Assembly (NCBI RefSeq): GCF_017876815.1
Contig: NZ_JAGIOS010000003.1
Location: 660,001 to 692,000, forward strand
Source of the DNA: Sinorhizobium meliloti
Lineage (GTDB): Bacteria > Pseudomonadota > Alphaproteobacteria > Rhizobiales > Rhizobiaceae
Direction: 5' to 3'
DNA length: 32,000 bases
In this document: in pieces, positions 2,670 to 31,952 of the stretch
How positions within the stretch are numbered: the stretch's first letter is position 1
Layout: every line of letters begins with the position of its first letter
Notes under the pieces: generated by a model
What the model was told of the DNA's origin: nothing
The model's input: the letters and a program-made list of their open reading frames with translations, nothing else
Databases searched by the model: none
Program-made: the position numbers and the translations under genes

Positions 2670-2742
2670 TGGACAACGCAAGATTTGCTGAACGCATCGA
2701 GATGGTTCTTATCGGACCGAACAACCAGCGAAGAAAACAAGG

Positions 2743-2758: not shown

Positions 2759-2778
2759 TTGGATTCTGGAGAAACACC

Positions 2779-4062: not shown

Positions 4063-4082
4063 TCGCATAGAATGGAACAGCG

Positions 4083-7779: not shown

Positions 7780-8884
7780 CAGCCTGTCTCCGTCATGAGC
7801 TTCGGCAGCCGCACCAGATCATAGGCGGCGGCCGCGAAGGTGAAGGCCCATCGGACGCGGTCGCGGCCACGGAACTTCGTCTTATCCTGCCCGGCGACGG
7901 TTTTGATCCAGCCGAACGCCCCTCCTCGATGCGCTTGCGGATGCGCAAGCTGACCCGATAGCCGGAATGGCACGTCGTGCGTCCATCAATGGCCGAGCGG
8001 CGACCATTGATGTTCTGCGCCACATGGGGCGTGACCTTCATCGACCGCAAATCTTTTACGAAGTCCTTTGTGTCATAGGCCTTGTCGACACCCAGCGTGA
8101 TCGCTTGTGTCCGCTCAGTGAAGGGCCCGATCATGTGCAACGCCGCGACCCGTTCGGCATACCCGCTGGCCTCTGTCAGATAGGCATCGACCAGCAGGCC
8201 ATGGCGATTTTCCATCAGCCCATGCCCCATGAAGCACAGCTTGGCCTCCTTGCCTTTTCCCTTCCTATAAAGCTTCGCATCCGGATCGGTCGTTGAAGCA
8301 TGCGTCTCGTTGGAGCGTCTCTCGCCATGGAAGTCTGCTTCCTTATTCCGACCGCCCGCATCCGACGGTGGTTCGCCATGATCGCCCCTGGGGCCGTCCT
8401 TCGGCTTGAAGCTCTTGATCGACGCCCAAGCTTCGATCAGCGTGCCATCGACAGAGAAGTGGTCCGTTGACAGCAACCGCTTTACTTTGGGCTGCGAAAG
8501 GATTGCGACCAGGAACTTCGCGGCGATGTCGCCTTCCAGCAACCGGTCGCGGTTCTTCGAAAACACCGAATGGTCCCAAGCTGGATCGTCAATGCCAAGG
8601 CCAACGAACCAGCGGAACAGAAGGTCGTATTCCAGCCGCTCCATCAAAAGCCGCTCAGAGCGGATCGGATAGATGGCTTGCAAAAGCATGGCGCGCAGAA
8701 GCTTCTCAGGCGCGATCGACGGCCGCGTGATCGGTGAATAAAGTGCTGCCAAATCTCGTTCCAGTGAAACGAGCGCTTCGTTCACGATCTGCCGGATAGC
8801 CCGTAGAGGATGATCTTTTCGAACACGATCCTCCAGATCAACATAGCTGAAGAGTTCGCCTGTCCTCACATCGCCGCCGCGCAT
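7779..8884 (-). pseudogene. IS5-family (DUF772 N-terminal domain + DDE) transposase with one frameshift near its 3' end
   Basis: N-terminal blocks: GELFSYVDLEDRVRKDHPLRAIR and LLRAMLLQAIYPIRSERLLMERLEYDLLFRWFVGL. C-terminus: SLRIRKRIEEG, then a frame switch at the C/G run about 7918-7925 into ORF 7779..7973 (AFGWIKTVAGQDKTKFRGRDRVRWAFTFAAAAYDLVRLPKLM), the normal family ending. Confidence 0.8.
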
Positions 8885-9022
8885 CCATCAGCTCCAAATC
8901 GCAGTAAAGCGAGTGAATCACGACCAGAACCTATGCGCCAGGGCCCTTTTTCAACAGCCTGCTAGTAGACCCGTCGCCGGTCCGCTTGACCTTATAGAGC
9001 AGAGAAAACCAATCGTGGACGC

Positions 9023-9679
9023 TCAGTCCCAATTGTTCGAGGTGGGACGCCAGCGTCTTTGCTGGGTCACCGCCCCCGGCGCTGTAACTCGGAAGGGACA
9101 GATTATCGTCGCCCAATGGAAAAAGCGCACCGTGGCGCTCAACACCGCGGCGGCGCCGATCTCTCCGCCCGCTGCAGAGGAATTGGCCTTTGCCGCGACT
9201 CTCGGAGTGAAGTAGCCGCCGCGAGCATAGCCCAGACCATTCAAGCCGCTGCTTTCGAAGGCTGTCACGCGACCGACCATCATGACATGGTCGCCCGCCT
9301 CGATAACATCATGCATCGAACATTCAAACCACGCCGCCACCTGCGCGAATATCGGACAGCCGTTCGGACCCCTCGCCCGGTCGACAGCAGCGAAGCGATC
9401 TTCGGCGGGGCGGGCAAATTTAATGGACACATCCTTCTGCGCCTCTGACAATATGTTGATGGCGAAGTGCTCGGCTGCGGTCATTGCTGGGTAGTCGCGC
9501 GCAGTCTTGGCAAGGCAAACAAGCAGCAGCGGCGGATCCAAGGATACAGATGTAAAGGAGTTGGCAGTGAAACCAACCGGCCTGCCCGCCGGATCGCTGG
9601 CGGTGATGACCGTCACTGCGGTTGGAAACGCTCCAAACGCCTCGCGCAAAGCTCTCGGGTCGAAAACGTCCGCCTTCAT
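9023..9679 (-). CDS. stc4: Flavin reductase-domain protein (stc4-like component of the stachydrine demethylase system) with an unassigned ~55-aa C-terminal tail
   Basis: LREAFGAFPTAVTVITA...GFTANSFTSVSLDPPLLLVCL...FAINILSE...DRF forms a flavin-reductase-like domain of about 160 aa. A strong SD (agggggaa) precedes the ATG. The gene is last in the order Rieske oxygenase, reductase, flavin reductase. Confidence 0.7.
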   Translation of the reverse strand: MKADVFDPRALREAFGAFPTAVTVITASDPAGRPVGFTANSFTSVSLDPPLLLVCLAKTARDYPAMTAAEHFAINILSEAQKDVSIKFARPAEDRFAAVDRARGPNGCPIFAQVAAWFECSMHDVIEAGDHVMMVGRVTAFESSGLNGLGYARGGYFTPRVAAKANSSAAGGEIGAAAVLSATVRFFHWATIICPFRVTAPGAVTQQRRWRPTSNNWD

Positions 9680-9981
9680 GTCATTCCCCCTTTGCGCGCC
9701 AGAAATCTCGCGATCGTTGCGTTAACGGTTTCCGCCGTTAGATTCTCATTTGCCTGGACTGGCGCGGGCCGCCAACGAGAGGGCCTTTCTGTCAACTTGA
9801 GACCTCCAGCACTTCCCTGCGTATTCGAGCGGCCATCGGTAGCCCTCTTCTAGATTACGTATTATGGTATTCCATGATACTAACCTGTCAAGCGGCTCTT
9901 CGCTGTGGGAGCCTCAACTCACCAGCTTCCCGGCAAGTTGTTGTGCCGAGTGTGCCGCAACTGATGGTCCCGATTCAGGAG

Positions 9982-11042
9982 CTATGCCTCGACGCTTACG
10001 CGTCCCAACGGCTTCGAGCAGCAGGCGAGGATATAACCGTCCTCGACATCCTCATCCGTGATGCCGCCATTGTGCACCATGTGGACCTGGCCCTCGGTCT
10101 TGCGCACCTTACAGGTGCCGCAGATCCCCATCGAGCAGCCCGACGGGATCACCAGCCCTGCAGCCTTTGCCGCCGCCAGTATCGTGTCCGTCTCGCTGCA
10201 TCTGGTCGTGACGCCGGAGAGGGCGAAGGCGATCTCGGCATGGTTCTGCTCATCGGGGATCACATCCTCGGGGACGTCTTCGGCATGCCCCGGCTCCGCC
10301 GTGAAGCTCTCCTGATGGTAGCGGCTCATATCGTAGCCAAGTCCGGCAAGCGCCTCGCGGACGGCCCGCATAAAGGGCTCCGGACCGCAGCAGAACACTT
10401 CGCGCTCGAGATAATCCTGCGCCATCAGGCCGAGCATGATCTGATTGAACATGCCCCGGTAGCCGGTCCAGGGCCGGAACGGGTCTGGCTCTTCGACCAC
10501 CCATTTCAGGTCGATGCCGACGATGCGCGACGCCATGAGTTCCATCCTGTCGCGCAGAATGATCTCGGAGGGTCGGCGCGCGCAATTGATGAAGACAATG
10601 TCCGGCTCGCGTCCGGAATCGTAGAGCCAGGTGGTCATCGCCACCATCGGGGTGATGCCCGAGCCGGCCGAGATGAACAGGTATTTATCAGTCGGGTGAT
10701 GCACGATCGAGAATTTTCCCGCCGGCCCGATAGCCCTGATGCGCATGCCCTATGCAGATTGTCCAGCATCCACCGTGTGCCGGTGGACCCGTCCTGCGCT
10801 TTGACCGTGATCGTCAGTGCGGTTGGCCGCGAGGGTGCAGAAGAGATGGTATAGGTGCGATAGAGCGGTCCGCCCGGCGCGGGCAGTTCCAGAGTGACGA
10901 ACTGCCCCGGATCATGGTTGAACAGCGCCCCGGAAGGACTTTGAAAGCTGAAGGTCACCACATTGGGAGCTTCCGGCGTGCGCGTGACGCATTCAAGCGG
11001 CTCGGCATCACTCCAGAAACTGAGCTGCTTGAACTGGGTCAT
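9982..11042 (-). pseudogene. stc3: Ferredoxin-NAD(P) reductase-type FAD/NAD-binding + plant-type [2Fe-2S] reductase (stc3/GbcB-like), interrupted by a frameshift
   Basis: The N-terminal part starts at ATG 11042 (MTQFKQLSFWSDAEPLECV...RTYTISS...GSTGTRWMLDNLH) in the frame of ORF 10635..11216. The remainder is ORF 9982..10746 (MRIRAIGPAGKF...ISAGSGITP...CCGP...CSMGICGTCKVRK...ACC). The frames differ by 1 nt, with the switch at about 10744-10752. The repaired length of ~353 aa is normal for the family. Confidence 0.8.
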
Positions 11043-11046
11043 CTGC

Positions 11047-12312
<1,266 letters not shown>

Positions 12313-12371
12313 TCAGATCAATCATGCTTGCAAACCGGACCGTCTGGCAATAGCGTTAAATTTCACTTTGG

Positions 12372-12386
12372 ATTAGCTGAAATAAT
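12372..12386. promoter_or_regulatory. Candidate LysR box (T-N11-A with ATTA/TAAT arms) in the divergent stc2/lysR intergenic region
   Basis: ATTAgctgaaaTAAT lies about 45 bp upstream of the regulator start and about 90 bp from stc2. This is a pattern match only. Confidence 0.2.
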
Positions 12387-12432
12387 CTCAAAGCCTACCC
12401 ACTCCTGCGGGAGAACATATAACGGGACCCTT

Positions 12433-13311
12433 ATGCCACGCCCTTATGAATTCTCTTCGATGACCGCCCTCGTCTGCTTCGAGGCGGCGGCGCGAAATGC
12501 GAGCTTCAAGAAAGCCGCTCAAGAGCTGAATGTGACGCCAGCGGCCATCAGCCACCAGATCAAGGCACTGGAGATGGACCTCAAATGCAGCCTGTTCCTG
12601 CGCCACCACCGCGGTGTCGAACTGACCGAGAAGGGAGCGCTCCTCTTCGTGGTCATTCAACGCGGCTTCGAGGCTATCTCGGAAACTCTTACCCAGATCC
12701 GCGAGCGCCCCGAAACCGTCGACGTGACCATCGGCGCGACTACGGCGTTCAGTTCACTCTGGCTGACCCCGAAGATTTCGGCCTTCTGGAAGATCCATCC
12801 CTCCATCACCGTGTCACAGGTCGTCAGTGATGTGCCTGGAATGACCAGCCGTTGCGATCTGACTATCCATTACGGCAACCCGCAGGAGAACGGCGTAGAA
12901 TACAGGAAACTCTTTCAGGACCACATTATCGCGCTGGGAACGACACGATTTGCCGCCGAGCACCGCATTGCCCGGCTCGAGGATCTGCTCAAAGCACCCT
13001 TGATCCATTCCAGCAGCAACGAGACCGGTTGGACGGCCTGGGACGATTGGTTTGCCGTACTCGGATGTCCGGCCCCGAAGGGCCGCAGTTTTTACGTCAA
13101 CAATTACATGATCGCACTTCAGGCGGCTCAAGACGATGTCGGGGCCGTACTTGGGTGGGACGGGCTCGTCGGGAGCCTCGTCAACGAAGGGCGGCTAGTC
13201 AAGCTCGTGCAAGAAAGCATTCCCTCACCTGTCGGCTTTCATCTGAGGATCCATTCGCGCGCAACGGCAAAGGCGCGGCTGTTCGCCGACTGGCTAGTCG
13301 AAGCCACCTAA
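12433..13311 (+). CDS. LysR-family (GcvA-like) transcriptional regulator, divergent from the stc2 operon
   Basis: The N-terminal HTH reads TALVCFEAAARNASFKKAAQELNVTPAAISHQIKALEMDLKCSLFLRHHRGVELTEKG, followed by a LysR substrate-binding domain. ATG 12433 gives the usual spacing before the HTH. The track start at 12259 is an upstream alternative. Confidence 0.85.
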   Translation: MPRPYEFSSMTALVCFEAAARNASFKKAAQELNVTPAAISHQIKALEMDLKCSLFLRHHRGVELTEKGALLFVVIQRGFEAISETLTQIRERPETVDVTIGATTAFSSLWLTPKISAFWKIHPSITVSQVVSDVPGMTSRCDLTIHYGNPQENGVEYRKLFQDHIIALGTTRFAAEHRIARLEDLLKAPLIHSSSNETGWTAWDDWFAVLGCPAPKGRSFYVNNYMIALQAAQDDVGAVLGWDGLVGSLVNEGRLVKLVQESIPSPVGFHLRIHSRATAKARLFADWLVEAT

Positions 13312-13382
13312 GGCGCTCGGCATCTGCCCTGATGCGGACGGCGTCGCTGTCATGAAAACTCGGCATTCCCGACGGTGACCAA

Positions 13383-13670
13383 TGGGGATGAACAGAGTTG
13401 TCGGATGGCGGCGGCGTACAGGGTTGGTGGAGATCGACATCTCGATGGTCGGCAATGGCGCGTGGCGGGACAATTCATCGAGCGGCTCTGGCGTGCGATC
13501 AAATACGAGGAGGTCTATACCACGCCTACAAAACCGTGCCCGAAGCCCTAGCTGGCATCGGCCGCTATCTCACCTTCTACAATTGCCGACACCCACATTC
13601 ATCCCTTGACCGGCAGACGCCGGATCAAGCTTACTTCAACACGCTGACGCCGATGATGGCGGCAGCATAA
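13383..13670 (+). pseudogene. C-terminal remnant of an IS3-family OrfB transposase (frameshifted, internally deleted)
   Basis: The blocks are spread over frames: GNGAWRDN, FIERLWRAIKYEEVY and HAYKTVPEALAGIGRYLTFYNCRHPHSSLDRQTPDQAYFN, which is the conserved end of IS3-family integrase-type transposases. No catalytic core lies upstream. Confidence 0.7.
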
Positions 13671-13902
13671 TCGAGGCGGAAATCCACCTAGAGAAACGCC
13701 CCAAACTGTTCAGACAAACCGCGCCACCTCTGTAGGCCTGCTGATGTCGTGGCGTGTTTGCCGTGCTCGTCCACGCCGTGTGGAGTAGCATCTTCTTGGG
13801 TCAGGTCTCGCCAGTCGATCATTGAATTTTCCTCCTTTGGTGACCTACCCGCTTGCGATCGGTACCTCTCGCCTCACGGTATCAGCCGAAATCAGCCGAA
13901 CT

Positions 13903-14352
13903 TCAGGCCGATCTTACCGCTTGCAGAGACGGGGAGAGGTTTGCCGCCGATTTCTTTCCCAGGCCGGTCGCGCGTGCGAGCTCGGATCGCTTTCTGGCAT
14001 AGTTCGGAGCTACCATCGGGTAGTCGGCCGGGAGCTTCCACTTTTCTCGATACTGCTCCGGCGTGAGTGCGTATTTTGCCATCAAGTGTCGCTTCAGAGA
14101 TTTGAAGCTCTTGCCGTCCTCAAGGCAGACGATGAAGTCGTCGGTCACAGACTTCTTGATCGGCACAGCGGGGCGTTGCTCCTCGACTGTGGCCGGAGTT
14201 TTCGTTGGTTCAGAAGCCTTACCCAGCGAGCCGTAGGTTTGCTGAATAAGATGGGGGAGTTCGCTGGGAGCAATGACATTGCGGCTCAAGTAAGCGGACA
14301 CGATGCGGCTGGTGAGCTCAAGCCTTAGTTCGTTTGAGTGCGATTCCGTCAA
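13903..14352 (-). CDS. Ros/MucR-family transcriptional regulator paralogue with a non-canonical zinc-finger
   Basis: [20 protein letters not shown]...[72 protein letters not shown] aligns along the whole length with Ros/MucR. The likely start is TTG 14352 (MTESHS...), preceded by ggagaag. The track start at 14367 is also TTG. Confidence 0.85.
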   Translation of the reverse strand: [149 protein letters not shown]

Positions 14353-14659
14353 TGATCTTCTCCACAAGCTGTTACAAATTGAGATCGAGCATGCAACCTG
14401 CAGATATTTCGGTCGGAAGGAAGGCAGTGTACGAGAAAGGCAAGACTTATCGACAGGTTCTGCCGCCCTCAGTATCGTCTCTTCAATCTCTGGTTTCGGG
14501 GAGGCACGGTGATACGAAGTCGTTGATGACTCTAGCGCAGTTCGAGATTACGTCGCCTCCTCGGTGCGCCAGGAAGCTGGCCACTTTTGTCAAGCGAAGC
14601 GAGAAATTGACCCCGCCCAACCAGCCTCGGGGTTTCATGCATCTCTTGCCTCCGGCCGG

Positions 14660-15103
14660 CGAATGTTGATCGAGATCAGTTCGGCTTTGTTCTGAACGAG
14701 CAGAACATCGGAATGCCGATGTCATACTGCTTGGTCGCGCCAAATGACGGCGTTTTCGTCGGTTGCATTCACCTTGGAATACTTCACCGTCCAACGCGCA
14801 TCGCGATCCTTCTGCGCGAGCTTGGCGGGCTTGTCTTTGGCGGCCGGTACCTTCTCGGACAGGGAAAGGCCTGGCAACCGCATGAGCGACAGCCGGTCCT
14901 GGATGACGGACTCAGCCTAGTCGTCGGAGAGATTCTAGAGCTCCTGAAGCATCCGGATCTGGAACATCAGCACCGCTGGAAAACGGCGGACGCCCGCCCT
15001 TCGATCCGTCGGAGCGCTTCAGCGCTTTGGCCAAAGGCTTCTCGAACACAGGCCACGGGAGGATTCCGTTGACCTTGTCAAGCGGACCGCCAACCGCACT
15101 CAA
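14660..15103 (-). pseudogene. Degenerate IS5-family transposase remnant (stops, frameshifts, internal deletion)
   Basis: The minus strand reads LSAVGGPLDKVNGILPWPVFEKPLAKALKRSDGSKGGRPPF, then (other frame) AVLMFQIRMLQEL*NLSDDQAE..DRLSLMR..GLSLSEKVP...KDRDARWTVKYSK. These are the typical N-terminal blocks of IS5-group transposases. Confidence 0.55.
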
Positions 15104-15354
15104 CCGCAGAGACGCGTCCGGACAATGATCAGAAAGAGGATCACAAGTGGAGGCTGGCGGCCCGGTTTCGCCGCCGCCAACGTGGTCAAGCTATTAATCG
15201 CGATGGCGGATTCGGCCATCGGTCCAACCGACTACTTGTTCGCAATGCCAAACCGATATGGCGTAATCGTGATCGGCAATCCCAGCATGCGACCGGCCTG
15301 TCCCGTTGCGAATCAATGCTTGACACTCAGCCGGGGCATATCTCAGCCACGGAG

Positions 15355-15381
15355 CTAGCACTCTCGCGTGAAGAGTGCTAA
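15355..15381 (+). promoter_or_regulatory. CIRCE operator (HrcA binding site) upstream of groES
   Basis: CTAGCACTC-tcgcgtgaa-GAGTGCTAA matches the consensus TTAGCACTC-N9-GAGTGCTAA at 17 of 18 positions, with perfect dyad arms of 8 bp. It lies 57 bp before the groES ATG. Confidence 0.9.
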
Positions 15382-15437
15382 CAACCACCACCGGGTCGTT
15401 CAAATATCCGCAGTGTCAATGATCGAGGGATTAAACA

Positions 15438-15734
15438 ATGGCAAGCACCAATTTCCGTCCGCTGCACGACCGCGTTGTCGTCCGCCGCGTCGAGTCTGAA
15501 GAAAAGACCAAGGGCGGCATCATCATTCCGGACACCGCTAAGGAAAAGCCGCAGGAAGGCGAAATCGTGGCTGTCGGTTCGGGTGCCCGTGACGAAAGCG
15601 GCAAGGTTGTTCCGCTCGACGTCAAGGCTGGCGACCGCATCCTGTTCGGCAAGTGGTCCGGCACCGAAGTCAAGATCAACGGCGAAGACCTTCTGATCAT
15701 GAAGGAAGCCGACATCATGGGTGTCATCGGCTGA
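15438..15734 (+). CDS. groES: Co-chaperonin GroES
   Basis: 98 aa: [42 protein letters not shown]...[11 protein letters not shown] gaggga. Confidence 0.97.
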
Positions 15735-15768
15735 TCGGCCGGCAACCCTTCAAACTTCCGCAATTTGA

Positions 15769-17448
<1,680 letters not shown>

Positions 17449-17486
17449 TAAGGCGACAGCCTTAGCACGATCCATCCGGATCCGAA

Positions 17487-17512
17487 GGGCGGCGCTCGGG
17501 CCGCCCTTTTTT
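17487..17512 (+). terminator. Rho-independent terminator of groESL
   Basis: GGGCGGC-gctcgg-GCCGCCC followed by TTTTTT, about 40 bp after the groEL stop. Confidence 0.8.
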
Positions 17513-18306
17513 GTACGCAACAAAGAGACGCGAGCGATCTCGTTGAGACAGGTCGATCCGACGCTGCATCATACGGTCTGCTGGCCACCTTCGTGGATGT
17601 GAATCTCTGGCATGATGATAGCCGGGCGGGCCGTCAGCCTGCCCGGCGGCCGGCTGTCGGATCGTCACCTTCCAAGCCGCAGGCGCCGTGGGGGAGCGGC
17701 ACCACAGCCGGATCTTCGTCTGACCCGTGCGGTTGCCGGAACTTTGAGGCTTGTATCCAAGACAGGAGCGATGACGCGAGGTCCAGGGAAGGGAAGGATC
17801 ATCAATATGAAGGCAGGGTACAACCGAAACTCTGAAGCAGGAATCTTCTAGACTCCAGCTTCGAGTTGCGAGGGGGGCGTTATGCCGAACGCGATATCTG
17901 TTCCAAATCCTAAGGGAGGTCTCGCGCGGTCAAGACGCTGATAAGCCATCGAGGCACGAAGCCGGCTGTTACTCTCGTCGCAAGGAGCCGCGTATCCGGC
18001 AGAATGGAAAGCGGTCCTTTCGACGGAAGGTACAAGCCTCCCCAAGCGTTGGCGAATACTCCTCAGATTGTACAATTACTCCGGGTGATTTGTTTGAGGT
18101 ATATCTTCGAAATCGTTGACGATGAGGGGCAGAGTCGCGCGTATGTCGCCTCACACATGTATCGCAAAGCAGATAAACTGATCGTGCTTCATCGAGGTGC
18201 GGAAGTCGGCATCGACATATGTCGGATTTGCGACTGGTGCGCAGTCGACGAGGACGAAGCGCAACGGGCGGGGACCGCCCAAACTGGTTGGCTGCATGAT
18301 TGTTGA

Positions 18307-18512
18307 AGTGCGCCCAGCACGCGTTCAGTATGGAATCCGTCCTTCGATGGGATTGCAGCTGCCAATGCGCAATCTTGTGCTACGCCCCCCTCGGCAAGCT
18401 CAAACACGATCACTGGCCAGGCCTCCGTGATCGATAGAGACACATTAGAAGTCGCAGGCAACCGTGTGGGCTGCACGGTGTAGATGCGCCGGAAAGTTGG
18501 CAAAAATGCTTA
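18307..18512 (+). pseudogene. Thermonuclease (staphylococcal nuclease/SNase-like) gene, 5' part; frameshifted and cut by an IS insertion
   Basis: Frame A reads ...IAAANAQSCATPPSASSNTITGQASVIDRDTLEVAGNRV. After a 1-nt frame switch near 18468-18472 it reads LHGVDAPESWQKC (the SNase ViDGDT...RL.GiDAPE motif). The IS starts at 18513. The start codon was not identified. Confidence 0.6.
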
Positions 18513-19445
18513 GAGTCGGACTCGAAAAGGTTTCAACGATATCCATATCTTGCAAGGCGTCTGGTGAGCATGCGGATGTGAGCGATGGTGATCCACGCTT
18601 CTGCTGAAGCGACGGATTTTTCGAAGTCCTTGGCCAGTCTGCGGCATCGACCCAGCCAGGCGAAGGTCCGCTCGACGACCCAGCGGCGCGGCAGGATTTC
18701 AAAACCCTTGGCCTTGTCGGAACGTTTGATGATTTCGAGTGTCCATTTCCCGATTTTCTGCAGCCGCTTTTTGAGCTTGTCGCCCGCATAGCCGCCATCA
18801 GCGAAGACATGAAGCAACCACGGCCACCGGTTTTTGATGGATTTCAGGAGATCGGGAGCGCCGTCGCGATCCTGAATATCGGCGCTGTGCACCATGAGGC
18901 CGACCATCAGCCCGAGCGTGTCGACAATGATGTGGCGCTTGCGGCCCTTAATCTTCTTGCCTGCATCAAAGCCACGGATACCGCCGCTTTCCGTCGTTTT
19001 AACGCTTTGGCTGTCGATCGCGCCCGCTGTCGGCGAGGCTTCTTTCCCCTCCAATTCCCGCGCCTCCATGACGAGGTGATGGTTGATCCGTGGCCAAAGA
19101 CCCATTGCCCGCCATTCATAGAAATATCGCTGCACCGTCGAACAGGGCGGAAAGTCCTTCGGCAGCATCCGCCACTGGCAGCCTGTCGAAGCGATATAGA
19201 GAAGGGCGTTTAAAACATCGCGCAAATCAGTCTTGCGCGGACGACCCAGACGCCGTGGCGCAGGCATGAACGGTGCAACAAAATCCCATTCGCGATCCGT
19301 GACATCGCTTGCATATCCGCTCGTCCGCCGGACATAATTGCGCCGGGTGGTTTCAGTCCAGGCCATCGTGATCTCCATCGAATCTTTGCAAATCCGACGG
19401 AATCACAACTGGCTGAAATCACTCAATTCTTTTTGAGGCAGCCTC
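18513..19445 (-). mobile_element. Complete IS5-family (IS427-like group) insertion sequence, 933 bp
   Basis: Imperfect terminal inverted repeats: GAGTCGGACTCGAAAAGG (18513-) against the reverse complement of the 19445 end, GAGGCTGCCTCAAAAAGA (about 16 of 25 positions). TTA(G) sits on both flanks (18510-18512 and 19446-19448). A single intact transposase ORF fills the element. Confidence 0.7.
18533..19366 (-). CDS. IS5-family (IS427-like) DDE transposase, intact
   Basis: MAWTETTRRNYVRR..YASDVTDREWDFVAPFMP...GRPRKTDLRDVLNALLYIASTGCQWRMLPKDFPP..TVQRYFYEWR...DSQSVKT...GKKIKGRKRHIIVDT...ADGGYAG...VERTFAWLGRCRRLAKDFE. ATG 19366 is preceded by ggaga. The alternative ATG at 19378 adds 4 aa. Confidence 0.9.
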   Translation of the reverse strand: MAWTETTRRNYVRRTSGYASDVTDREWDFVAPFMPAPRRLGRPRKTDLRDVLNALLYIASTGCQWRMLPKDFPPCSTVQRYFYEWRAMGLWPRINHHLVMEARELEGKEASPTAGAIDSQSVKTTESGGIRGFDAGKKIKGRKRHIIVDTLGLMVGLMVHSADIQDRDGAPDLLKSIKNRWPWLLHVFADGGYAGDKLKKRLQKIGKWTLEIIKRSDKAKGFEILPRRWVVERTFAWLGRCRRLAKDFEKSVASAEAWITIAHIRMLTRRLARYGYR

Positions 19446-24131: not shown

Positions 24132-24575
24132 TTACGGGAGCGGGCTCAAGTCAGTCCTCTCCGCCAAATTGCCCGGATTCCACACGATCTCCCACAGATG
24201 GCCATCGGGATCGGTGAAGTAGCCCGCATATCCCCCGTAAAACGTCTCTTGGGCGGGCTTCACGATGGCCGCGCCCGCTTCGCGTGCCTGTTCCATGACT
24301 TCATCCACCTCGCTTCGTTGCGAGACGTTGTGGCCGATCGAGAACGATGTGCTGCTGGCAGGCGCTTTCGTCAGACCGCTATCGTGAGCCAAATCGTCCT
24401 GATCCCAGATCGCAAGTTTGACACCGTTCGAAAGATCAAAGAACGCGACAGCGCCATGCTCGAATTCGCGACCCACGATCCCTGGGGTGTGCAGTCCCAG
24501 TCCATCACGATAGAAAGCGAGAGACCGTTCAAGATCTGCGACGCCAAGCGTCAGCACAGAAATGCGGGGCTTCAC
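24132..24575 (-). CDS. VOC (glyoxalase/bleomycin-resistance/dioxygenase) family protein
   Basis: ISVLTLGVADLERSLAFYRDGLGL...GHNVSQRSEVDEVMEQAREAGAAIVKPAQETFYGGYAGYFTDPDGHLWEIVWNP. The GTG at 24575 is preceded by gggaga at 8 nt. The 115-codon upstream extension of the track ORF has no VOC similarity. Confidence 0.8.
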   Translation of the reverse strand: MKPRISVLTLGVADLERSLAFYRDGLGLHTPGIVGREFEHGAVAFFDLSNGVKLAIWDQDDLAHDSGLTKAPASSTSFSIGHNVSQRSEVDEVMEQAREAGAAIVKPAQETFYGGYAGYFTDPDGHLWEIVWNPGNLAERTDLSPLP

Positions 24576-24957
24576 GAGCAATTCTCCCGTAAAATAGTGG
24601 CTTGGCACATCCAGTTTCGCGCTGTCTTTGCGTCGACACAACATTGCCGCAGAAGCGCCGACCGTGAGCGGGCCTGTTATCACTGAGAGTTGTTTTTTCT
24701 TGGGCCTTGACGCTCCTCCGCCGAGTGTGAGCATCGCCAAGGCGAAATGAACACCCAACGCTCCGATGACCGCCATCAAAGCATCCACATGACCGCATTC
24801 TAGCATCACGCCGTTCGGCAGTGACGCGCTCACCGTGGTTGGAGAGGAAAAGGCACAGCTCTTTTCGAGGGCCGACCCACGCACCCCATCGCAAGTCCCC
24901 GCCAAATCCGCCGCAGCCATGCTGATCTGTCGCAGCAGGGCCCGATCGGAAGTGCTT

Positions 24958-25569
24958 TTAAACTGAACTGGGATAATCGCCGGTGATGAGGACGGGGCGA
25001 GAGGCTGGCTCTGCGCGCTTCTTTATCCGCTTGCACAGAAGGTTCGCGTTGACCCGATGTTCGAGCGCAAGTCTCGCTACCGATGCGAATGGCTCAAGGC
25101 AGGCCGCGACGAGGCGGTTCTTCGATGCGGGGTCGTATCGACATCGCCCGTGCCGACCTACAAGCCCTATCGGCAGTTGCTGATAATCGTCTTCCAACAT
25201 CTCGACGCATTGGCCGTCCGTGGCGATGACATATGACCATCCGCCGACCCTCTCATGCATGAAGGAGAGAGGCGACTCTTCAGTCCAGCCATGATTTCGG
25301 ACCCTGAAGGTTATCCTTCCCGGACGTGGAGCCTGCGCATCGGCGCGCCCCACAATTCCAGCAATCCTCTTCATCCAGGAGGCTGAACGTATGGCATCGG
25401 CATCGATCCGGAACCGGTCTTCTCCAGAGATCACTTCAACCGAACGGCTACGAAGTTCATTGGAGCGCGGCTCCTGTGTTCCGGCGGTAACTCGATGTGT
25501 CCTGTAGGAGAGCGACAGGATTTGGACATCCATGTCGCAGAATGCCGTATTCCAGCGATCGAACCGCAA
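24958..25569 (-). pseudogene. Chimeric ORF: AraC-type ligand-binding-like N-terminal fragment joined to an IS66/IS3-type TnpA (HTH_Tnp_1-like) fragment
   Basis: The C-terminal GRCRYDPASKNRLVAACLEPFASVARLALEHRVNANLLCKRIKK fits the pattern RRYs.efK..vV..cl.PGaSVa.vA..HgvNANLl..W of IS accessory TnpA proteins. The N-terminal RFDRWNTAFCDMDV... loosely resembles AraC_binding_2-type regulators. The start is TTG and there is no AraC HTH. Confidence 0.35.
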
Positions 25570-25667: not shown

Positions 25668-26435
25668 CTAGAAGCCACCCGACAACACGACGGCCTCGCC
25701 GGTCATGAAGCTACACGCATCCGAGGCGAGAAAGAGCGCAGCGCCCACCATTTCGTCGGGCCTGCCTGCGCGGCCCATCCAGTTGAGCGTCCGGACGTAG
25801 TTCGACCATGCCTCAGGATCGCCGTCGCGGCGGGCAGCGTTTCGGTCCGTGTCGATGAGTCCCGGCGCAAGTGTGTTGAGTAACACGCCGCGGGAGGCAT
25901 AATCGCGAGCGAGGCTTTGGATCAGGTTATGCTGGGCTGCCTTGGTCGCCGCATAAATGGAGACGATCGATTTCGGCCGCAACTGGTTGATGCTGCCAAT
26001 GTTGACGACGCGGCCCCAGCCGCGTTCCGCCATAGCGGGCAACGCCGCCTGCAGCATCTCGACTGTAGAGCGAAGGTTGACATCGATCTGGGTGGCGAAA
26101 TCCTCCGGTGTCACATCGTGGAGCGCCCCGTTGATTTGCGCCGATGCGTTGATGACCAAAATATCCAGGGGACCTGCCGCGCCTTCAGCCGCCGCAATCA
26201 AGTCGCGGCCGGCACTGGGCGGCGAAAGCTCGCGATGGATCGAGACCGCGTCACCGCCGGCCGCGCGTATCGCCTTTTCGATCTCGGCCGTAGCGCCGGG
26301 CCTCTGTCCGTGCAGGACAACACGCGCGCCATACGCTGCATAGGCTTGTGCGATCGAGGCCCCGATGCCGCGGCTCGAGCCGGTCACCAGAGCTGTTCTG
26401 CCCTTCAGCGAAAATATGTCCTTATACGTGTTCAC
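25668..26435 (-). CDS. Classical short-chain dehydrogenase/reductase (SDR; KduD/FabG-like)
   Basis: TALVTGSSRGIGASIA (TGxxxGxG), NASA and YAATKAA (YxxxK). A GTG start is preceded by gaggga. The stop of the upstream gene overlaps that SD. Confidence 0.9.
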   Translation of the reverse strand: MNTYKDIFSLKGRTALVTGSSRGIGASIAQAYAAYGARVVLHGQRPGATAEIEKAIRAAGGDAVSIHRELSPPSAGRDLIAAAEGAAGPLDILVINASAQINGALHDVTPEDFATQIDVNLRSTVEMLQAALPAMAERGWGRVVNIGSINQLRPKSIVSIYAATKAAQHNLIQSLARDYASRGVLLNTLAPGLIDTDRNAARRDGDPEAWSNYVRTLNWMGRAGRPDEMVGAALFLASDACSFMTGEAVVLSGGF

Positions 26436-26444: not shown

Positions 26445-28154
26445 TCAGACGCCGAAGAGCGAGGTGGGCAGGCCGCGCTCACCGGGATTGCAGGCAAAAA
26501 TGCCGCCGGAGAGCGGTGCTTCCGTCAGCGTTGAGGCCGGGAGACGGGTGCGCGCACTGGTGATGAACAAAGTCGCAAGCTCGTCCCCGCCGAAGGCAAC
26601 GCTGGTGGGGCGCGGCACTGGCAGTTCGACGGCTCGATCCAGCCGGCCATCTGGGCGATAGCGGTTCACGCGCCATCCGTCCCAGATCGCACACCAGACC
26701 CCGCCATCGGCATCGACAGCAAGACCGTCCGGGCGCCCTTCCGCCTCGGGCACCGTAACGAAGACACGGCGGTTGGCGATGCTCCCCTCGCGTGCATCGA
26801 AGTCGTAGGCATAGATGATGCCCGGCACCGTATCGACGAAGTAAAAGGTCGAACTGTCCGGACTCCAGGCCAGCCCGTTGGCGACCGTGAACCCGCTCCC
26901 GGCGCGGGTTACTTCGCCGGCACTCGTAAGGCGATAAAGGCTGCCGGTCGGGCGGCTCACGTCGAGCCGCATCGATCCCACCCAAAGGCGGCCGCTCGGA
27001 TCGACTTTGGCGTCATTCAGGCGGTTTTCCGGCAACCCGGGTTCCGGCTCGGCGAAGGGGTTGAAGTCGCCGCGGTCGAAATCGAAGTGCTCGACGCCAT
27101 CCTGGGAGGCGACGATCAGTCCCTCATTCCGCGTCGGAAGGACAGCACTGACGAGTTTGGCGACGTTACAGCTCTCGTTCTTACCAGTGACGGGGTCGAA
27201 GCGGTGCACAGCCGGATGCAGGATGTCCACCCAATAGAGCCGCTTCTCCCTTTCGACCCAAACTGGCGCTTCTCCGAGCTGAGCGCCCCAGGGCAAGACG
27301 CATTGCACGTCGCTGAAGCCCCCCGAGCGCGTGCGGGGGCGTGGTCCAGAGCTGATCGCAACCGCCCCGACCGTGCCAGTGATCCGTCGCGCCGCCGCCA
27401 TCAACTCGCGCCCAGCCGGATGGATGGCGGAACTGTCGAGGCGGGAAGCCGGCCCAAGCACGACGAGTGCGCCGAGTGGCACTCCATCGCGCCCGGCGAT
27501 CGGAGCAGCGACGGAATTGACCCCGGCCAGATGCTCCTCGTAGGAAACGGCGTAGCCGCGGGCACGTGTCAGAACGAGATCGGCCTCCAGCGCCTGCGAA
27601 TCCGTGATGGTGTTTGGCGTAAATCGATCATATGTGATCTGCCCCGCCAGCGACCGGGCGAAAGACGGCTCCTGAAACGCAAGCAGGACCTTGCCGGCCG
27701 CAGTGCAATGAACCGGCACGCGCCGGCCGACCTCGATCAACACGCCCAAGCCACCGCTTGACCGCTCTTCCAGATAGACCACGCGCTGACCGTCCAGCCG
27801 GCAAAGCGCAACCGTCTCTCCGAGCTCGCTCGCAAGGCGATCGAGTTCGGGGATGGCGGCGCTGACGAGGTCGAATTTGTCCCACACCCGATGTGAGAGC
27901 TCGACAAAACGGTGGCCGAGCAGATAGGCCCCCGTGGTCTCGTCCTGGCGGATCAGCCGGAAGACCATCAGCGTCTTGAGCATGCGCGCAAGCGTTGGCT
28001 TCGGCACACCACTCATTTTCTGCAGATCGGCGAAGCGCAGCGGTTTCGGCGCCTCAGCTATGAGGTCGAGGAGAGCAAGCCCCTTGGCGAGCGCTGCCGC
28101 CCCCGCCGGCGCACCGCGATCCTCCAGCCCGCCTAAGCCTGCCTTATCGTCCAT
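26445..28154 (-). CDS. Single-ORF fusion of an IclR-family transcriptional regulator (N-terminal ~270 aa) and an SMP-30/gluconolactonase/LRE-like lactonase (C-terminal ~290 aa)
   Basis: IclR part: LAKGLALLDLIAEAPKPLRFADLQKMSGVPKPTLARMLKTL (wHTH), then the effector domain ...VPVHCTAAGKVLLAF...ITD...GYAVSYEEHLAGVNSVAAPI. After the linker SSGPRPRTRSGG comes the SMP-30 part: LGEAPVWVEREKRLYWVDIL...NDAKVDPSGRLWVGSM...ANGLAWSPD...PDGLAVDADGGVWCA...FGGDELATLFITSA. The 569 codons contain no stop. Confidence 0.85.
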   Translation of the reverse strand: MDDKAGLGGLEDRGAPAGAAALAKGLALLDLIAEAPKPLRFADLQKMSGVPKPTLARMLKTLMVFRLIRQDETTGAYLLGHRFVELSHRVWDKFDLVSAAIPELDRLASELGETVALCRLDGQRVVYLEERSSGGLGVLIEVGRRVPVHCTAAGKVLLAFQEPSFARSLAGQITYDRFTPNTITDSQALEADLVLTRARGYAVSYEEHLAGVNSVAAPIAGRDGVPLGALVVLGPASRLDSSAIHPAGRELMAAARRITGTVGAVAISSGPRPRTRSGGFSDVQCVLPWGAQLGEAPVWVEREKRLYWVDILHPAVHRFDPVTGKNESCNVAKLVSAVLPTRNEGLIVASQDGVEHFDFDRGDFNPFAEPEPGLPENRLNDAKVDPSGRLWVGSMRLDVSRPTGSLYRLTSAGEVTRAGSGFTVANGLAWSPDSSTFYFVDTVPGIIYAYDFDAREGSIANRRVFVTVPEAEGRPDGLAVDADGGVWCAIWDGWRVNRYRPDGRLDRAVELPVPRPTSVAFGGDELATLFITSARTRLPASTLTEAPLSGGIFACNPGERGLPTSLFGV

Positions 28155-29113
28155 TCCGCTACCGCCTCGTCCAGCATTCGCATGATCGGCCAGTCAGGCT
28201 CGAAACCGAGTGTCTCGCGAATGCGCTGATTGGATGTGTGATACCAAACACCGGCGCCAGGCAGATCCACCGTCAAAAGCGGCAACCCGGTCATTTGCGC
28301 CATTACGGGCAGGATCTGGGCGAAGTCAACAGGTTCGGAAGCCCCCAGATTGAAGATACCACGGGCTGCCTTTTGGTGCGTAAGTGCAAGAAGCACGCCT
28401 TGGGCCATGTCGCGGGTGTCGGTAATATGCATTCGGAACGGCCGCCCCTCTTCATTGCGGGTCAGCACCAGCGCGGGCCGACCGGGGTCGGCCGCACGCA
28501 GAAGGTCGGCCGCAGCCTTATTGCCAAAGTTTTCCTGCTGCTCGATTTTGGGTCGAAGAAAGAAGCGCGGTCCGGAGAAGAAGCTTTCGGGGTCGAGCAG
28601 CTCACTTGCGTTCTGCGTGTGCGAGAAGCGCAGGATTACCGTCTCCATCGACGATACGCGCCCCTGGAACGTCACCAGTTCCTCGCCGAGAAGCTTGGTC
28701 AGGCCGTATGGCGACAGCGGCTTCTTCGGATGGTCTTCGGTAATCGGTTGAAACTCCGGTTTGTTTTCCGGGTAGACCTCGCCGGAACTCGCGAAGACGA
28801 AGCGCCCGACCTTAGCCGCGGCCGCGGCCTCGAGCACGATGCGCGTCCCCTCGACATTTGCCCGAAAGAGTTTGTCGCGATCGCTTGCCAGCCAGGACAT
28901 GAAAGCGCCGAGATGAAGCACCGCGTCGGTGCCTTCGCAAGCGCGTATTGCCGCTTCCCGATCGTCGAAGGCCCCGATGACTTCGTCGAAGCCGCCGTCC
29001 TCGATACCGGCCGAGCGAAGGTCGAAGCCCCGGACTTGATGGCCGCCGGCAATCAGCCGCCGGACGAGAAAGGCGCCGACCCTTCCGGCAGAGCCCGTTA
29101 CAAGCACTTTCAT
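28133..29113 (-). CDS. NAD-dependent epimerase/dehydratase-family protein (extended SDR)
   Basis: MKVLVTGSAGRVGAFLV (GxxGxxG), ASSGEVY and YGLTKLLGE (YxxxK). The ATG lies 1 nt after the ATPase stop. The 3' end overlaps the IclR-lactonase ORF by 22 nt. Confidence 0.85.
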   Translation of the reverse strand: MKVLVTGSAGRVGAFLVRRLIAGGHQVRGFDLRSAGIEDGGFDEVIGAFDDREAAIRACEGTDAVLHLGAFMSWLASDRDKLFRANVEGTRIVLEAAAAAKVGRFVFASSGEVYPENKPEFQPITEDHPKKPLSPYGLTKLLGEELVTFQGRVSSMETVILRFSHTQNASELLDPESFFSGPRFFLRPKIEQQENFGNKAAADLLRAADPGRPALVLTRNEEGRPFRMHITDTRDMAQGVLLALTHQKAARGIFNLGASEPVDFAQILPVMAQMTGLPLLTVDLPGAGVWYHTSNQRIRETLGFEPDWPIMRMLDEAVAEWTIRQA

Positions 29114-29114: not shown

Positions 29115-30203
29115 TCAGTTTACTGCCTTTTCTGTCTTTGCGTCGAAGAGGTGGACCTCTGAGGCATTGAACGAGAGCACAAGCTCTTCGCCCTCGCGGA
29201 TGGGGCCTGCGTGTGCGATACGGGCGATTAGACCCTTGCCGCGCTCCTCGTCGCGCGCATCCGCTCTGTAGGCGTGCTCGCCAGGTTCGAAGTAGACGTA
29301 CTTTTCCGAGCCGAGGCTTTCCACCAAAGTCGGCTTTACGGTGAATGTGACGTCACCTGGACCGAGCGCGAGGTGTTCGGGCCGGATGCCGACGATGATC
29401 TCTCCCGCGCCGACGCCGACAGCCGCATTGAAGGTCTGGCCGAAGAGCGTCAGCTTGCCGGCTTCGATCCTGGCGCGCAGGAAGTTCATGCCCGGCGAGC
29501 CGATGAACCCGGCGACAAAGAGGTTCTCCGGCTTGGCGAACAAAGTATCAGGGTCGGCGATCTGCTGGATGGCGCCGTCACGCATGATGACGACACGATC
29601 GGCCATGGTCATCGCCTCGATCTGATCGTGCGTGACATAGACCGTCGTGACGCCGATGCGCTTGTGAAGCGCGCTGATCTCGGCGCGCGTATGGACGCGC
29701 AGCTTGGCGTCGAGGTTGGAAAGCGGCTCGTCCATAAGGAAGGCGCGCGGCTCGCGCACGATAGCGCGGCCGAGTGCGACGCGCTGGCGTTGTCCGCCCG
29801 AAAGCGCCTTCGGTCGCCGGTCCAGCAGATGGTCGACTGCGAGGATCTTGGCCGCCGCGCGAACCCGCCTGTCGATCTCTGCCTTGGGCATCCCACGCAT
29901 CTTGAGCCCGAAGCCCATATTCTGACCCACCGTCAGATGCGGGTAGAGAGCATAGTTCTGGAAAACCATCGCGATGTCGCGGTCGCCCGGGGCAAGGTCC
30001 GTCACGTCCCTGTCGCCGATCATGATCTTGCCGCCGCTTGCAGGCTCCAGCCCGGCAAGAATTTTCAACATCGTTGACTTGCCGCAACCCGAAGGACCGA
30101 CCAGTACGACGAACTCACCATCCGCGATCTCCAGCGAGAACTCCTTGAGCACGTTGAGCGCTCCGTAGTCCTTGTAGACGTTTTGAATGCTTATTCCGGC
30201 CAT
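29115..30203 (-). CDS. ABC sugar-transporter ATP-binding protein (MalK/UgpC type)
   Basis: Walker A GPSGCGKST, Q-loop, signature LSGGQRQR, Walker B FLMDEPLSNLD, H-loop YVTHD, and a C-terminal MalK-like regulatory domain. Confidence 0.95.
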   Translation of the reverse strand: MAGISIQNVYKDYGALNVLKEFSLEIADGEFVVLVGPSGCGKSTMLKILAGLEPASGGKIMIGDRDVTDLAPGDRDIAMVFQNYALYPHLTVGQNMGFGLKMRGMPKAEIDRRVRAAAKILAVDHLLDRRPKALSGGQRQRVALGRAIVREPRAFLMDEPLSNLDAKLRVHTRAEISALHKRIGVTTVYVTHDQIEAMTMADRVVIMRDGAIQQIADPDTLFAKPENLFVAGFIGSPGMNFLRARIEAGKLTLFGQTFNAAVGVGAGEIIVGIRPEHLALGPGDVTFTVKPTLVESLGSEKYVYFEPGEHAYRADARDEERGKGLIARIAHAGPIREGEELVLSFNASEVHLFDAKTEKAVN

Positions 30204-30204: not shown

Positions 30205-31035
30205 TCACTTCTCCGCGCCGGCAGTCAGGCCGCCGACCAAATAGCGTTCGAGGAACAGGTAGATGAGGATGATCGGCAGCGCGATGAACACGGCCGCCGC
30301 CGAGATCTCGTTCCAGTCGGTGACGTACTCGCCCTTCATCGTGGTGATGCCGAGATTGGCCGTCCAACTGCCCTGGGCATTGGTCAGGAAGGTGCGAGCA
30401 TAGGCATAGTCCGCCCAGGAGAGGACGAAGGCATAAAGCGCCGTTGCAGCTAGACCAGGCGTCGCTACCGGAAGCACGACCCGGAACAGGGCGCCAAGCG
30501 GAGAGCAGCCATCGACCATCGCCGCCTGCTCCAACTCGCGCGGGATCGTGTCGAAGTAGCCCTTCAACATCCAGGTGGTGAAGGGGATGATCAGCGTCGC
30601 ATGGGCGAGGACAAGCGACCACAGGCTCCCGATCAGCCCCATCGAGCGGAAGATGCCGAAAAGCGGAATGACAAGCAGCGTTGCCGGCAACATCTTCGCT
30701 GTGAGAATGAAGAGGCCGAGCGATCGCCCGCCCTTCACGCTGAAGCGCGACAGGCTGTAGCCTGCGAAGACCGAAACAACCATCGACAGGGCTACAGAAC
30801 CGAGCGCCGCGAGCGTCGAGTTCCACAGCCATAGGAAGATCGGCCGCTCGGTACCCACTTTGGCGAAGGTGCTCCACTGCGGTTCGGCCGGCCAGAAGGA
30901 CGGCGGCAACTGGCGGATTTCCGCGAGCGTCGACAGCGCCGTGACGAACAGCCAATAGATAGGAAAGAGAAGGACACCGCAGACGACGGCAAGGCCGACG
31001 TAGAGCGAGAGCGTTTGAAGGGTGGTGCGCTGCAT
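30205..31035 (-). CDS. ABC sugar-transporter permease (CUT1 family, UgpE/MalG-like)
   Basis: 276 aa from ATG 31035 (MQRTTLQTLSLYVGLAV...), preceded by ggagg at 7 nt. EAA loop: EQAAMVDGCSPLGALFRVVLP. The longer track ORF (to 31554) overlaps the upstream permease gene in another frame. Confidence 0.9.
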   Translation of the reverse strand: MQRTTLQTLSLYVGLAVVCGVLLFPIYWLFVTALSTLAEIRQLPPSFWPAEPQWSTFAKVGTERPIFLWLWNSTLAALGSVALSMVVSVFAGYSLSRFSVKGGRSLGLFILTAKMLPATLLVIPLFGIFRSMGLIGSLWSLVLAHATLIIPFTTWMLKGYFDTIPRELEQAAMVDGCSPLGALFRVVLPVATPGLAATALYAFVLSWADYAYARTFLTNAQGSWTANLGITTMKGEYVTDWNEISAAAVFIALPIILIYLFLERYLVGGLTAGAEK

Positions 31036-31046: not shown

Positions 31047-31952
31047 CTAATACATTGCCTGGGACTTGCGGCCGAGCATCAACAGGCTGGCGACGACGCA
31101 CAGCACGAGGGTTACGATGCCGATTGCGGAGGCGTAACCCATGTTGAAGAAGCCGAAAGCCTGATCGTAGGTCATGATCGAGAGCGTTTGCGTCGCCTTG
31201 AGCGGCCCGCCGTCGGTCAGCACTTTGATGATTGAAAGATCCCGGAAGACCCAAAGGACAACGAGCACCGACGTCACGCCGAGAACAGGCATGAGCACGG
31301 GAATGGTGATGTACCAGAAGCGCTGGAACGCGTTCGCGCCATCGACCTTGGCGGCGTTGTAGAAATCTTCCGGAATGGACTGCAAACCGGCAAGCGTCAT
31401 GATGGAGACGAAGGGGTAACCCTTCCAGATCATCGTTATCGCCACCACCCAGAATGCGGCGGTGGGTTCGGAGAACCAGTTGATCATCTGGCTCGTAATG
31501 CCGAGCTTGATGAAGAGCCAGTTCATCAAGCCGAAGGAAGAATCGAAGATCCAAGCGAAAATGACGACGGCGATGACTTCGGGAACGGCCCAGGGCAGAG
31601 CCACGAAGAGACGCGCCAGCGTCCGCCCCTTGAAACGGTTATTGACCAGCAAGGCCGTTCCCAGACCGACGGCGAAACAGGCTGCACTGACAACCACGAC
31701 CAACTTGATCGTCACCCAGCACGAGTTCCAGAAATCCGGCGAGGCGAATAGCTTGTGGTAGTTTTCCAGTGTGAACGGCTTGCGCGGTGCGCTGAGCGTC
31801 GCCATGCCGATCTTCTGGAAAGACAAGTCGAGGGACACGAACAGCGGATAGACGATGATCAGGGCGACCAGCGCGACGGCCGGCAGCAACAACAGATAGC
31901 CCAGCCAATGCTGCCGGCTCGGCCGTGCCAGATCGAGGAAGCGTAGGCTCAT
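31047..31952 (-). CDS. ABC sugar-transporter permease (CUT1 family, UgpA/MalF-like)
   Basis: The ATG at 31952 (MSLRFLDLARPS...) is preceded by aagagg. The GTG at 31988 is an alternative start. There are multiple TM segments. EAA loop: YNAAKVDGANAFQRFWYITIP. Confidence 0.9.
   Translation of the reverse strand: MSLRFLDLARPSRQHWLGYLLLLPAVALVALIIVYPLFVSLDLSFQKIGMATLSAPRKPFTLENYHKLFASPDFWNSCWVTIKLVVVVSAACFAVGLGTALLVNNRFKGRTLARLFVALPWAVPEVIAVVIFAWIFDSSFGLMNWLFIKLGITSQMINWFSEPTAAFWVVAITMIWKGYPFVSIMTLAGLQSIPEDFYNAAKVDGANAFQRFWYITIPVLMPVLGVTSVLVVLWVFRDLSIIKVLTDGGPLKATQTLSIMTYDQAFGFFNMGYASAIGIVTLVLCVVASLLMLGRKSQAMY

Follow-up and report, generated by a model that had tools for sequence, protein, structure and literature searches.

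A fused IclR regulator and SMP30-type lactonase domain in a conserved catabolic operon of Sinorhizobium meliloti: a candidate repressor-lactonase

Does one gene of Sinorhizobium meliloti encode a transcription factor and a pathway enzyme in a single polypeptide and, if it does, what would such a protein do in its operon? The question is raised by a 32,000-nucleotide stretch of DNA (contig NZ_JAGIOS010000003.1, positions 660,001 to 692,000), called the window here and numbered from its first letter. The window belongs to the megaplasmid pSymA and is 100% identical to the sequences of strains SM11 and RU11/001 and 99.7% identical to those of 1021 and 2011. The gene in question lies at 26445..28154 on the minus strand (stop codon included) and encodes a protein of 569 aa, in which an IclR-type regulator continues into a propeller of the SMP30/gluconolactonase/LRE (SGL) family. 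An earlier note, made from the sequence alone, had the coordinates of the reading frame right, omitted the strand and regarded the joining of the two halves as unusual. We find that the fusion is a real, common and catalogued protein family, apparently unstudied, and on balance we favor its being a bifunctional, autoregulated repressor-lactonase of its own sugar-acid catabolic operon.

Integrity of the fused gene

The open reading frame (ORF) starts with ATG and runs through 569 codons with zero internal stops, and the protein is 99-100% identical across S. meliloti records. Pfam comparison resolved three domains, all encoded on the minus strand. The first one is a winged helix-turn-helix (HTH) of the HTH_IclR family at residues 21-72 (27939..28094; PF09339, 52.5 bits, cut-off 22), followed by the IclR_C effector-binding domain at residues 90-258 (27381..27887; PF01614, 129.6 bits, cut-off 24). 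After an interdomain linker (residues 259-292, 27279..27380), the six-bladed SGL propeller occupies residues 293-535 (26550..27278) and covers profile positions 1-246 of the 246 of PF08450 (302 bits, cut-off 26.3, E-value = 3e-90). The last residues, 536-569 (26448..26549), form a propeller C-terminal tail with an invariant EAPLSGG(I/L)F, which aligns with the C-termini of XylC and SMP30. With all three domains far over their cut-offs, the proposal that one polypeptide holds an IclR regulator and an SMP30-type lactonase domain, both of them complete, is confirmed. The 569 aa, with an extra domain of ~275 aa, depart from the canonical two-domain IclR size of ~250 aa.

Both junctions with the neighboring genes are tight. 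The fusion start overlaps the upstream extended SDR gene (28133..29113, minus strand) by 22 nt, with a GAGG 10 nt before the ATG, and the downstream classical SDR gene begins 9 nt past the fusion stop, with a GAGGGA spanning that stop codon. The overlap had been noted before and taken to mean co-translation with the preceding gene, and the overlap is as described; translational coupling of the fusion gene to its neighbors is supported.

Distribution of the fusion

A missing base or stop at the junction, which had been raised as a concern, is not supported by comparative data. The fused reading frame was recovered at a coverage of at least 80% in 141 plasmid records (tblastn), and the junction formed one uninterrupted tblastn segment in 82 of 84 loci from independent genomes, the two exceptions being one contig end and one draft genome. 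It is also gap-free in the orthologue alignment. Frameshift differences do occur elsewhere in the operon in individual strain records, but nothing was found in favor of a sequencing or assembly artefact falsely joining two genes, and the same frame in these plasmid records and in ~80 independent species genomes excludes sequencing error for practical purposes. The probability that we leave to an artefact is negligible.

When one genome per species was scanned, relatives were detected in 165 genomes, and in the 80 best loci of that scan both halves were matched with 57-92% identity. The 120 best clusters of the protein database (62-99% identity, 524-593 aa) carry the three domains, one of them without a precomputed HTH_IclR match, and include Ensifer, Agrobacterium, Stappia, Nitratireductor, Paracoccus, Pseudovibrio and Geminicoccaceae. 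A search of 1.84 billion representatives of 50%-identity clusters extended the family further, as ~40 of the best 150 cluster representatives had 528-590 aa and aligned end-to-end with the query at 32-48% identity. Among the sampled fused representatives, Pfam assigned both HTH_IclR and SGL to 39/39 and IclR_C to 38/39. Fused genes were also detected in Variovorax (Betaproteobacteria) and in a metagenome-assembled Granulosicoccaceae genome; the architecture is common in Alphaproteobacteria and occurs too in Beta- and Gammaproteobacteria. Annotation pipelines already label it (JGI uses 'sugar lactone lactonase YvrE/DNA-binding IclR family transcriptional regulator'), so that the fusion can no longer be called unusual. 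The earlier note had left room for a common, already characterized family: common it is, but full-text searches found no publication on an IclR-SGL fusion or its locus, two partial matches being unrelated. The fusion may have arisen once or more than once: in a neighbor-joining tree of the propeller domain, with its long degenerate branches, the fused proteins did not group as monophyletic, but 37/42 have a fused nearest neighbor.

Split versions in syntenic position were sought as well. Separate syntenic IclR and SGL genes were absent from the 84 loci, from 60 sampled plasmid rows and from loci anchored on 55%-identical dehydratases (MR_MLE), all of which are fused. Short database entries, among them P0129, P0135 and P0148, look like contig-end fragments. 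One further entry, P0139, is a 970-aa protein of the insect Lycorma delicatula with three SGL-like stretches and is unrelated to the fusion.

Linker region

A Pro/Arg/Ser/Gly-rich linker had been described between the halves. It is present as SSGPRPRTRSGG (residues 268-279), but at 27318-27353, a few bases off the 27310-27345 first given. The linker reads A-I-S-S-x-P-R-P-R at residues 266-274, then continues with 8-10 variable residues. P271, P273 and R274 are invariant in 21 orthologues (62-88% identity), the motif spanning window positions 27330-27359 (residues 266-275). In an AlphaFold model of the fusion, built with an alignment of 21 orthologues, the predicted local distance difference test (pLDDT) falls below 50 over residues 262-279. 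The conserved motif thus lies inside a segment that is predicted to be disordered. Many distant fused proteins likewise have P-x-P motifs in their linkers.

These features bear on a passive 'Rosetta-stone' fusion, in which the stop between an IclR gene and a lactonase gene was lost and the two halves work independently, in equal stoichiometry and with no cross-talk. The predicted disorder of the linker fits such an origin, each half looks complete alone, and the tightly packed, overlapping neighbor genes would make a stop-loss fusion easy. On the other side stand the invariant P-R-P-R motif among the orthologues and the persistence of the fusion over Alpha-, Beta- and Gammaproteobacteria, with no split syntenic version in the loci surveyed. 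Together with the degenerate relatives described below, they lead us to hold a passive fusion unlikely, if not strongly so.

The linker also contains the GTG at 27308 that had been proposed as an internal start giving a free lactonase. This codon is V283, and 10 nt upstream of it lies a G-run (GGGGGG), which is a poor match to a Shine-Dalgarno sequence. A free lactonase of ~31 kDa could accompany or replace the fusion, either by initiation at this GTG or by proteolysis of the linker, for which the disordered, conserved P-R-P-R segment might, speculatively, be the processing site. Although both GTG and G-run exist in S. meliloti, the V283 column holds ATG, GTG or TTG in only 17 of 82 orthologues, as expected from Val/Leu codon drift, and no position within residues 276-291 has a conserved start codon in these orthologues. 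Internal initiation is therefore not supported by the sequence comparison, though S. meliloti by itself may be a case apart, and we regard two products as very improbable.

Lactonase domain

The propeller shares 37-38% identity with Caulobacter XylC (7PLB, E-value = 4e-52) and was also aligned with SMP30 (4GN7/3G4E). The Fe2+ ligands of XylC are Glu18, Asn146 and Asp196, its substrate contacts are Arg99, Asn101 and Trp211, and the metal ligands of SMP30 are Glu18, Asn154 and Asp204 (PMC8820113). All corresponding residues are present in the fusion, with E295, N426 and D476 aligning with the XylC metal triad and R378, N380 and W491 with the XylC substrate contacts. Across 120 related clusters, E295, N426, R378, N380 and W491 are kept in 120/120 and D476 in 112/120. 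Neither the fusion nor its clade is thus an enzyme fold deprived of its catalytic residues, as a pseudoenzyme would be. In the AlphaFold model, pLDDT averages 81 and is mostly 85-97 over residues 293-535, and the predicted template modeling score (pTM) is 0.71. Foldseek superposed the modeled propeller on SMP30 (4GNC) and XylC (7PLC) with TM 0.92-0.93 and a root-mean-square deviation of 2.0 Å. No PDB chain among the structure matches spans both halves. Based on the active-site residues and on the match of the predicted fold, the enzyme half looks catalytically competent.

Degenerate sister subfamily

Beyond the close relatives, the active site of fused propellers is often eroded. All five of E295, R378, N380, N426 and D476 are found in 10/42 fused cluster representatives vs 80/92 stand-alone SGL cluster representatives, two sets that are not matched for divergence; the E/N/N/D core is found in 91/92 of the stand-alone ones. 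Specifically, in the subfamily that we call P0195-like (119 fused clusters) the metal ligands are retained in none, while T54, R57 and G80 of the HTH are retained, as they are in catalytic and degenerate subfamilies alike. Its members come from Kaistia, Bradyrhizobium, Brucella intermedia, Agrobacterium, Devosia, Bosea and others. The propeller of this subfamily (loci L092-L094 and L087) has lost every metal and substrate residue. The P0195-like genes adjoin genes for MR_MLE, extended SDR, RraA-like, SnoaL-like (SnoaL_2), YCII and amino-acid-type ABC proteins, a catabolic module.

Since this propeller has outlasted catalysis and is still joined to a conserved HTH, it must, on these alignments, serve a non-catalytic purpose. 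Ligand sensing or assembly would be the simplest, and sensing is probable. The subfamily thereby lends indirect support to the suggestion of the earlier note that the enzyme domain might generate the effector or itself be the sensor. The subfamily is not explained by a passive fusion with a purely enzymatic passenger; it favors a functional integration of the halves over a tether that is purely passive, without being proof for the protein of the window. It also brings up the possibility that the propeller of the window protein is primarily a sensor, in which binding of a lactone or sugar, with or without turnover, would allosterically control DNA binding and the lactonase chemistry would be incidental. 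In its favor, the 119 P0195-like clusters kept the HTH residues without the metal ligands, complete active sites are scarce among fused proteins, and the degenerate proteins still sit within catabolic clusters with MR_MLE and extended-SDR genes. But that scarcity comes from the unmatched comparison given above, the full catalytic and substrate-binding set is conserved in the clade of the window, the operon has no second lactonase, and IclR_C, itself a ligand-binding domain, is intact. For the window protein we consider a primarily sensory propeller improbable and lean to a working lactonase.

Operon and pathway

Synteny was counted over the 84 loci, with annotated relatives and tblastn, and showed an operon that is syntenic in ~80 species. 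It comprises genes for a DHDPS-family protein, an MR_MLE dehydratase, a binding protein, two permeases, a MalK-type ATPase, the extended SDR, the fusion and the classical SDR, with a 2-keto-3-deoxygalactonate kinase gene (DGOK) divergent from it. The most constant partners of the fusion are the dehydratase (81/84 loci), the extended SDR (79/84), the DHDPS-family protein and the classical SDR (78/84 each). The last six operon genes are in the window, all on the minus strand: permease 1 of the ABC transporter (301 aa, 31047..31952) and permease 2 (276 aa, 30205..31035); the MalK-type ATPase of a CUT1 ABC transporter (29115..30203; ABC_tran and OB_MalK, syntenic in 73/84 loci); the extended SDR, of the NAD-dependent epimerase/dehydratase family (PF01370), a candidate sugar 1-dehydrogenase; the fusion itself; and the classical SDR oxidoreductase (25668..26435; Pfam adh_short), which is the last operon gene. 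The binding-protein, dehydratase, DHDPS and kinase genes and the promoter are past position 32000. Domain content and synteny of the neighbors thus bear out that the fusion belongs to an operon for the catabolism of a sugar or sugar acid. No other DNA-binding protein and no other lactonase is encoded by this operon in S. meliloti and Agrobacterium; the Agrobacterium fabrum C58 counterpart of the fusion is WP_006315794.1.

From these domains, the pathway looks De Ley-Doudoroff-like, with dehydrogenase, lactonase, dehydratase, kinase and aldolase. A uronate/galactarolactone route was considered because the next-best PDB match is 4GGB (Atu3139), and was not adopted, the conserved partners being a DgoK-like kinase and, at some loci, a KDPGal aldolase. 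Concerning the dehydratase (UniProt Q92ZS5), structural genomics structures exist (PDB 4H1Z and 2PPG), as they do for the Agrobacterium orthologue (2NQL and 4DN1). Neither the dehydratase nor the DHDPS-family protein, kinase or binding protein could be assigned to an NCBIfam equivalog; in the PDB the ABC binding protein has no relatives and the TRAP binding protein has distant ones only.

The transporter varies among lineages (loci L055, 6958-9851; L064, 6093-8952; L089, 11659-13709). In marine ones TRAP DctPQM stands in place of the CUT1 ABC system and a KDPG-type aldolase is added to the operon, and in Variovorax two TTT binding proteins serve as transporter substitute and both SDR genes are absent. 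Despite the TRAP or TTT swap, the fused gene stays with the DHDPS/MR_MLE/DGOK module, also in the betaproteobacterium. These variants give a hint that the entry compound may be an acid or a lactone.

Two frameshifts were observed in strain records of the operon. The pSymA sequence of S. meliloti 1021 (NC_003037.1) has one base fewer at window position 29720, which shifts the ATPase frame after ...MDEPL, while the SM11, RU11/001 and 2011 records match over the full query length. The difference reflects either a true defect of the laboratory strain or a sequencing error of 2001, and it matters for reading 1021 phenotype data on the operon. In strain RCAM1115 (CP050559, locus L002, 13600-14460) permease 2 is frameshifted and the gene is missing from the annotation table; the window copy is intact.

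Candidate operator

The regulator half has the expected relatives. The sequence of IclR_C matches 3R4K, PcaR (8EJU), 1MKM and BlcR (3MQ0) in the PDB, and the N-terminal half of the AlphaFold model matches the folds 1MKM (IclR), 8EJV (PcaR) and 3MQ0 (BlcR). When the sequences preceding the first operon gene (DHDPS-family) of 75 loci were aligned, two 17-bp palindromes appeared in tandem before this gene, and they are present in >70 species. The consensus of site 1 is TAGTGTCAATTAGTGAA, and site 2 reads GTnTCA-N5-TGGAC or TGATAC and is a perfect palindrome in several species. The palindromes start 20-21 bp apart in 58/60 loci and lie 10-55 nt ahead of the start codon. A position weight matrix, scanned on both strands over the 1.69 Mb of fetched loci from which it was derived, matched almost exclusively at the operator position, and no palindrome copies were found within the window.

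In S. meliloti the pair is located at ~35430-35490 in window-equivalent numbering, ~3.4 kb past the window end (L002 ~18830-18890), where it overlaps a promoter-like TTGACA-18-TATGGT; in CP050559 the DHDPS-DGOK intergenic DNA is at 227,258-227,343. Site 1 overlaps the -10 hexamer, which is the geometry expected of a repressor. Directly upstream of the fusion gene no promoter-like site was found on the minus strand. More distant paralogous clusters carry other palindromes; for instance, Variovorax has TTCC-N7-GGAA ahead of the operon and again ahead of the fused gene. Judging by this conservation, we propose the tandem palindromes as the candidate operator of the fusion protein.

Proposed mechanism

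The reading that we favor can be laid out as follows. The IclR module, probably as a dimer of dimers, would bind the tandem 17-bp palindromes, and binding at the -10 region would repress the whole operon of 9-10 genes, including the fusion gene. The propeller would act as a XylC/SMP30-type metal-dependent lactonase and hydrolyze the aldonolactone that one of the two SDR enzymes, as dehydrogenase, would form. Dehydration of the resulting aldonate would fall to the enolase-superfamily enzyme, the next step, phosphorylation, to the DgoK-like kinase, and the final cleavage to an aldolase. Induction would most likely take place via a pathway intermediate in the IclR_C pocket, an aldonate or a 2-keto-3-deoxy acid, by analogy with KdgR-type regulators, and the tethered enzyme may help to deliver the ligand or to transmit substrate occupancy. 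Coupling between the domains is speculative.

Several points weigh against this reading. D476 is replaced in 8/120 close clusters and sugar lactones hydrolyze spontaneously, so that catalysis may be dispensable. The operator is linked to the fusion protein by co-occurrence only (phylogenetic footprinting), with a matrix that was derived from the same loci it scanned, and the Pseudovibrio loci carry an additional divergent IclR gene. The dehydratase Q92ZS5 is a structural-genomics target with no function assigned. Finally, the linker of the AlphaFold model is of low confidence.

A broader idea can be put forward tentatively. IclR-SGL proteins might form a large unrecognized class of one-component regulators with the propeller as signal-input module, in which the clade of the window would couple induction to lactonase flux, sister clades would be pure sensors and the P-R-P-R linker would transmit the signal. 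We regard this as possible, but doubtful.

Relation to known systems

The fusion has the same HTH_IclR and IclR_C core and fold as the IclR-family regulators KdgR, PcaR/PcaU, BhcR and BlcR/AttJ (Agrobacterium), and it is encoded in its presumed target operon, as the sugar-acid and lactone repressors of the family are encoded in or beside theirs. However, these repressors have ~250 aa, in contrast to the 569 aa of the fusion with its C-terminal enzyme domain, and the fusion is orthologous to none of the named equivalogs: in NCBIfam the best one, BhcR, scored 144 bits against a cut-off of 350, and PcaR/PcaU, KdgR, IclR and AllR were far below their cut-offs. BlcR tetramers are reported on two adjacent palindromes, and the candidate operator of the fusion is similar in form. 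The BlcR operon also includes a lactonase, as the fusion operon does, although the blc lactonase is a separate protein of the metallo-beta-lactamase fold. XylC and SMP30/regucalcin share the metal triad and the substrate contacts with the fusion, and XylC acts in an oxidative sugar pathway after a dehydrogenase; both are stand-alone proteins of ~290-300 aa, whereas the propeller of the fusion is the C-terminal half of a transcription factor.

With the trigger enzymes PutA, BirA and NadR the fusion shares the concept that one polypeptide provides a pathway step and gene regulation. At the level of sequence it combines a catalytic and a DNA-binding domain in one chain, as they do, but their folds are unrelated (PutA joins RHH with PRODH/P5CDH) and their activities and switch have been shown experimentally, whereas the fusion is known from the sequence level. 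The MocR/GabR regulators (GntR HTH with an aminotransferase-like domain) and the ROK repressors offer a further parallel, as the P0195-like subfamily fits their pattern of a degenerate enzyme turned sensor. The fusion itself differs from them, having kept the full catalytic set, and the fold and the HTH family differ as well.

Both domains and the trigger-enzyme concept are already well known; the conserved operator candidate, the intact active site in this clade and the large, catalytically dead sister clade are what the present analysis adds. IclR regulators are viewed as two-domain proteins of ~250 aa with IclR_C as sensor, and a family of hundreds of clusters that adds an enzyme domain would broaden this picture. 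The series from catalytic to degenerate propellers is natural material for studying how an enzyme becomes a sensor. Additionally, the fusion, the predicted operator and the solved dehydratase are landmarks of a catabolic operon that is widespread on the megaplasmids of rhizobia and Agrobacterium, and the regulator-operator pair could serve as a biosensor for the sugar lactone or acid.

Other features of the window

Downstream of the operon, a glyoxalase/VOC ORF is located at 24132-24920 (minus strand). Since its Pfam domain covers only residues 120-245 of 262, translation probably begins at an internal codon. For the adjacent ORF at 24958-25569 there is no Pfam match. Positions 1-19400 carry cargo that is unrelated to the fusion operon. 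This includes a second DHDPS-family gene (1791-2669), a DUF1611 gene (4083-5090), a PfkB/Phos_pyr_kin kinase (5924-7135), two genes for IS transposases (7793-8884 and 18533-19378) and a GroEL paralogue (15811-17448). The same region holds a Rieske oxygenase alpha subunit at 11047-12291 on the minus strand, which overlaps a divergent LysR regulator at 12259-13311.

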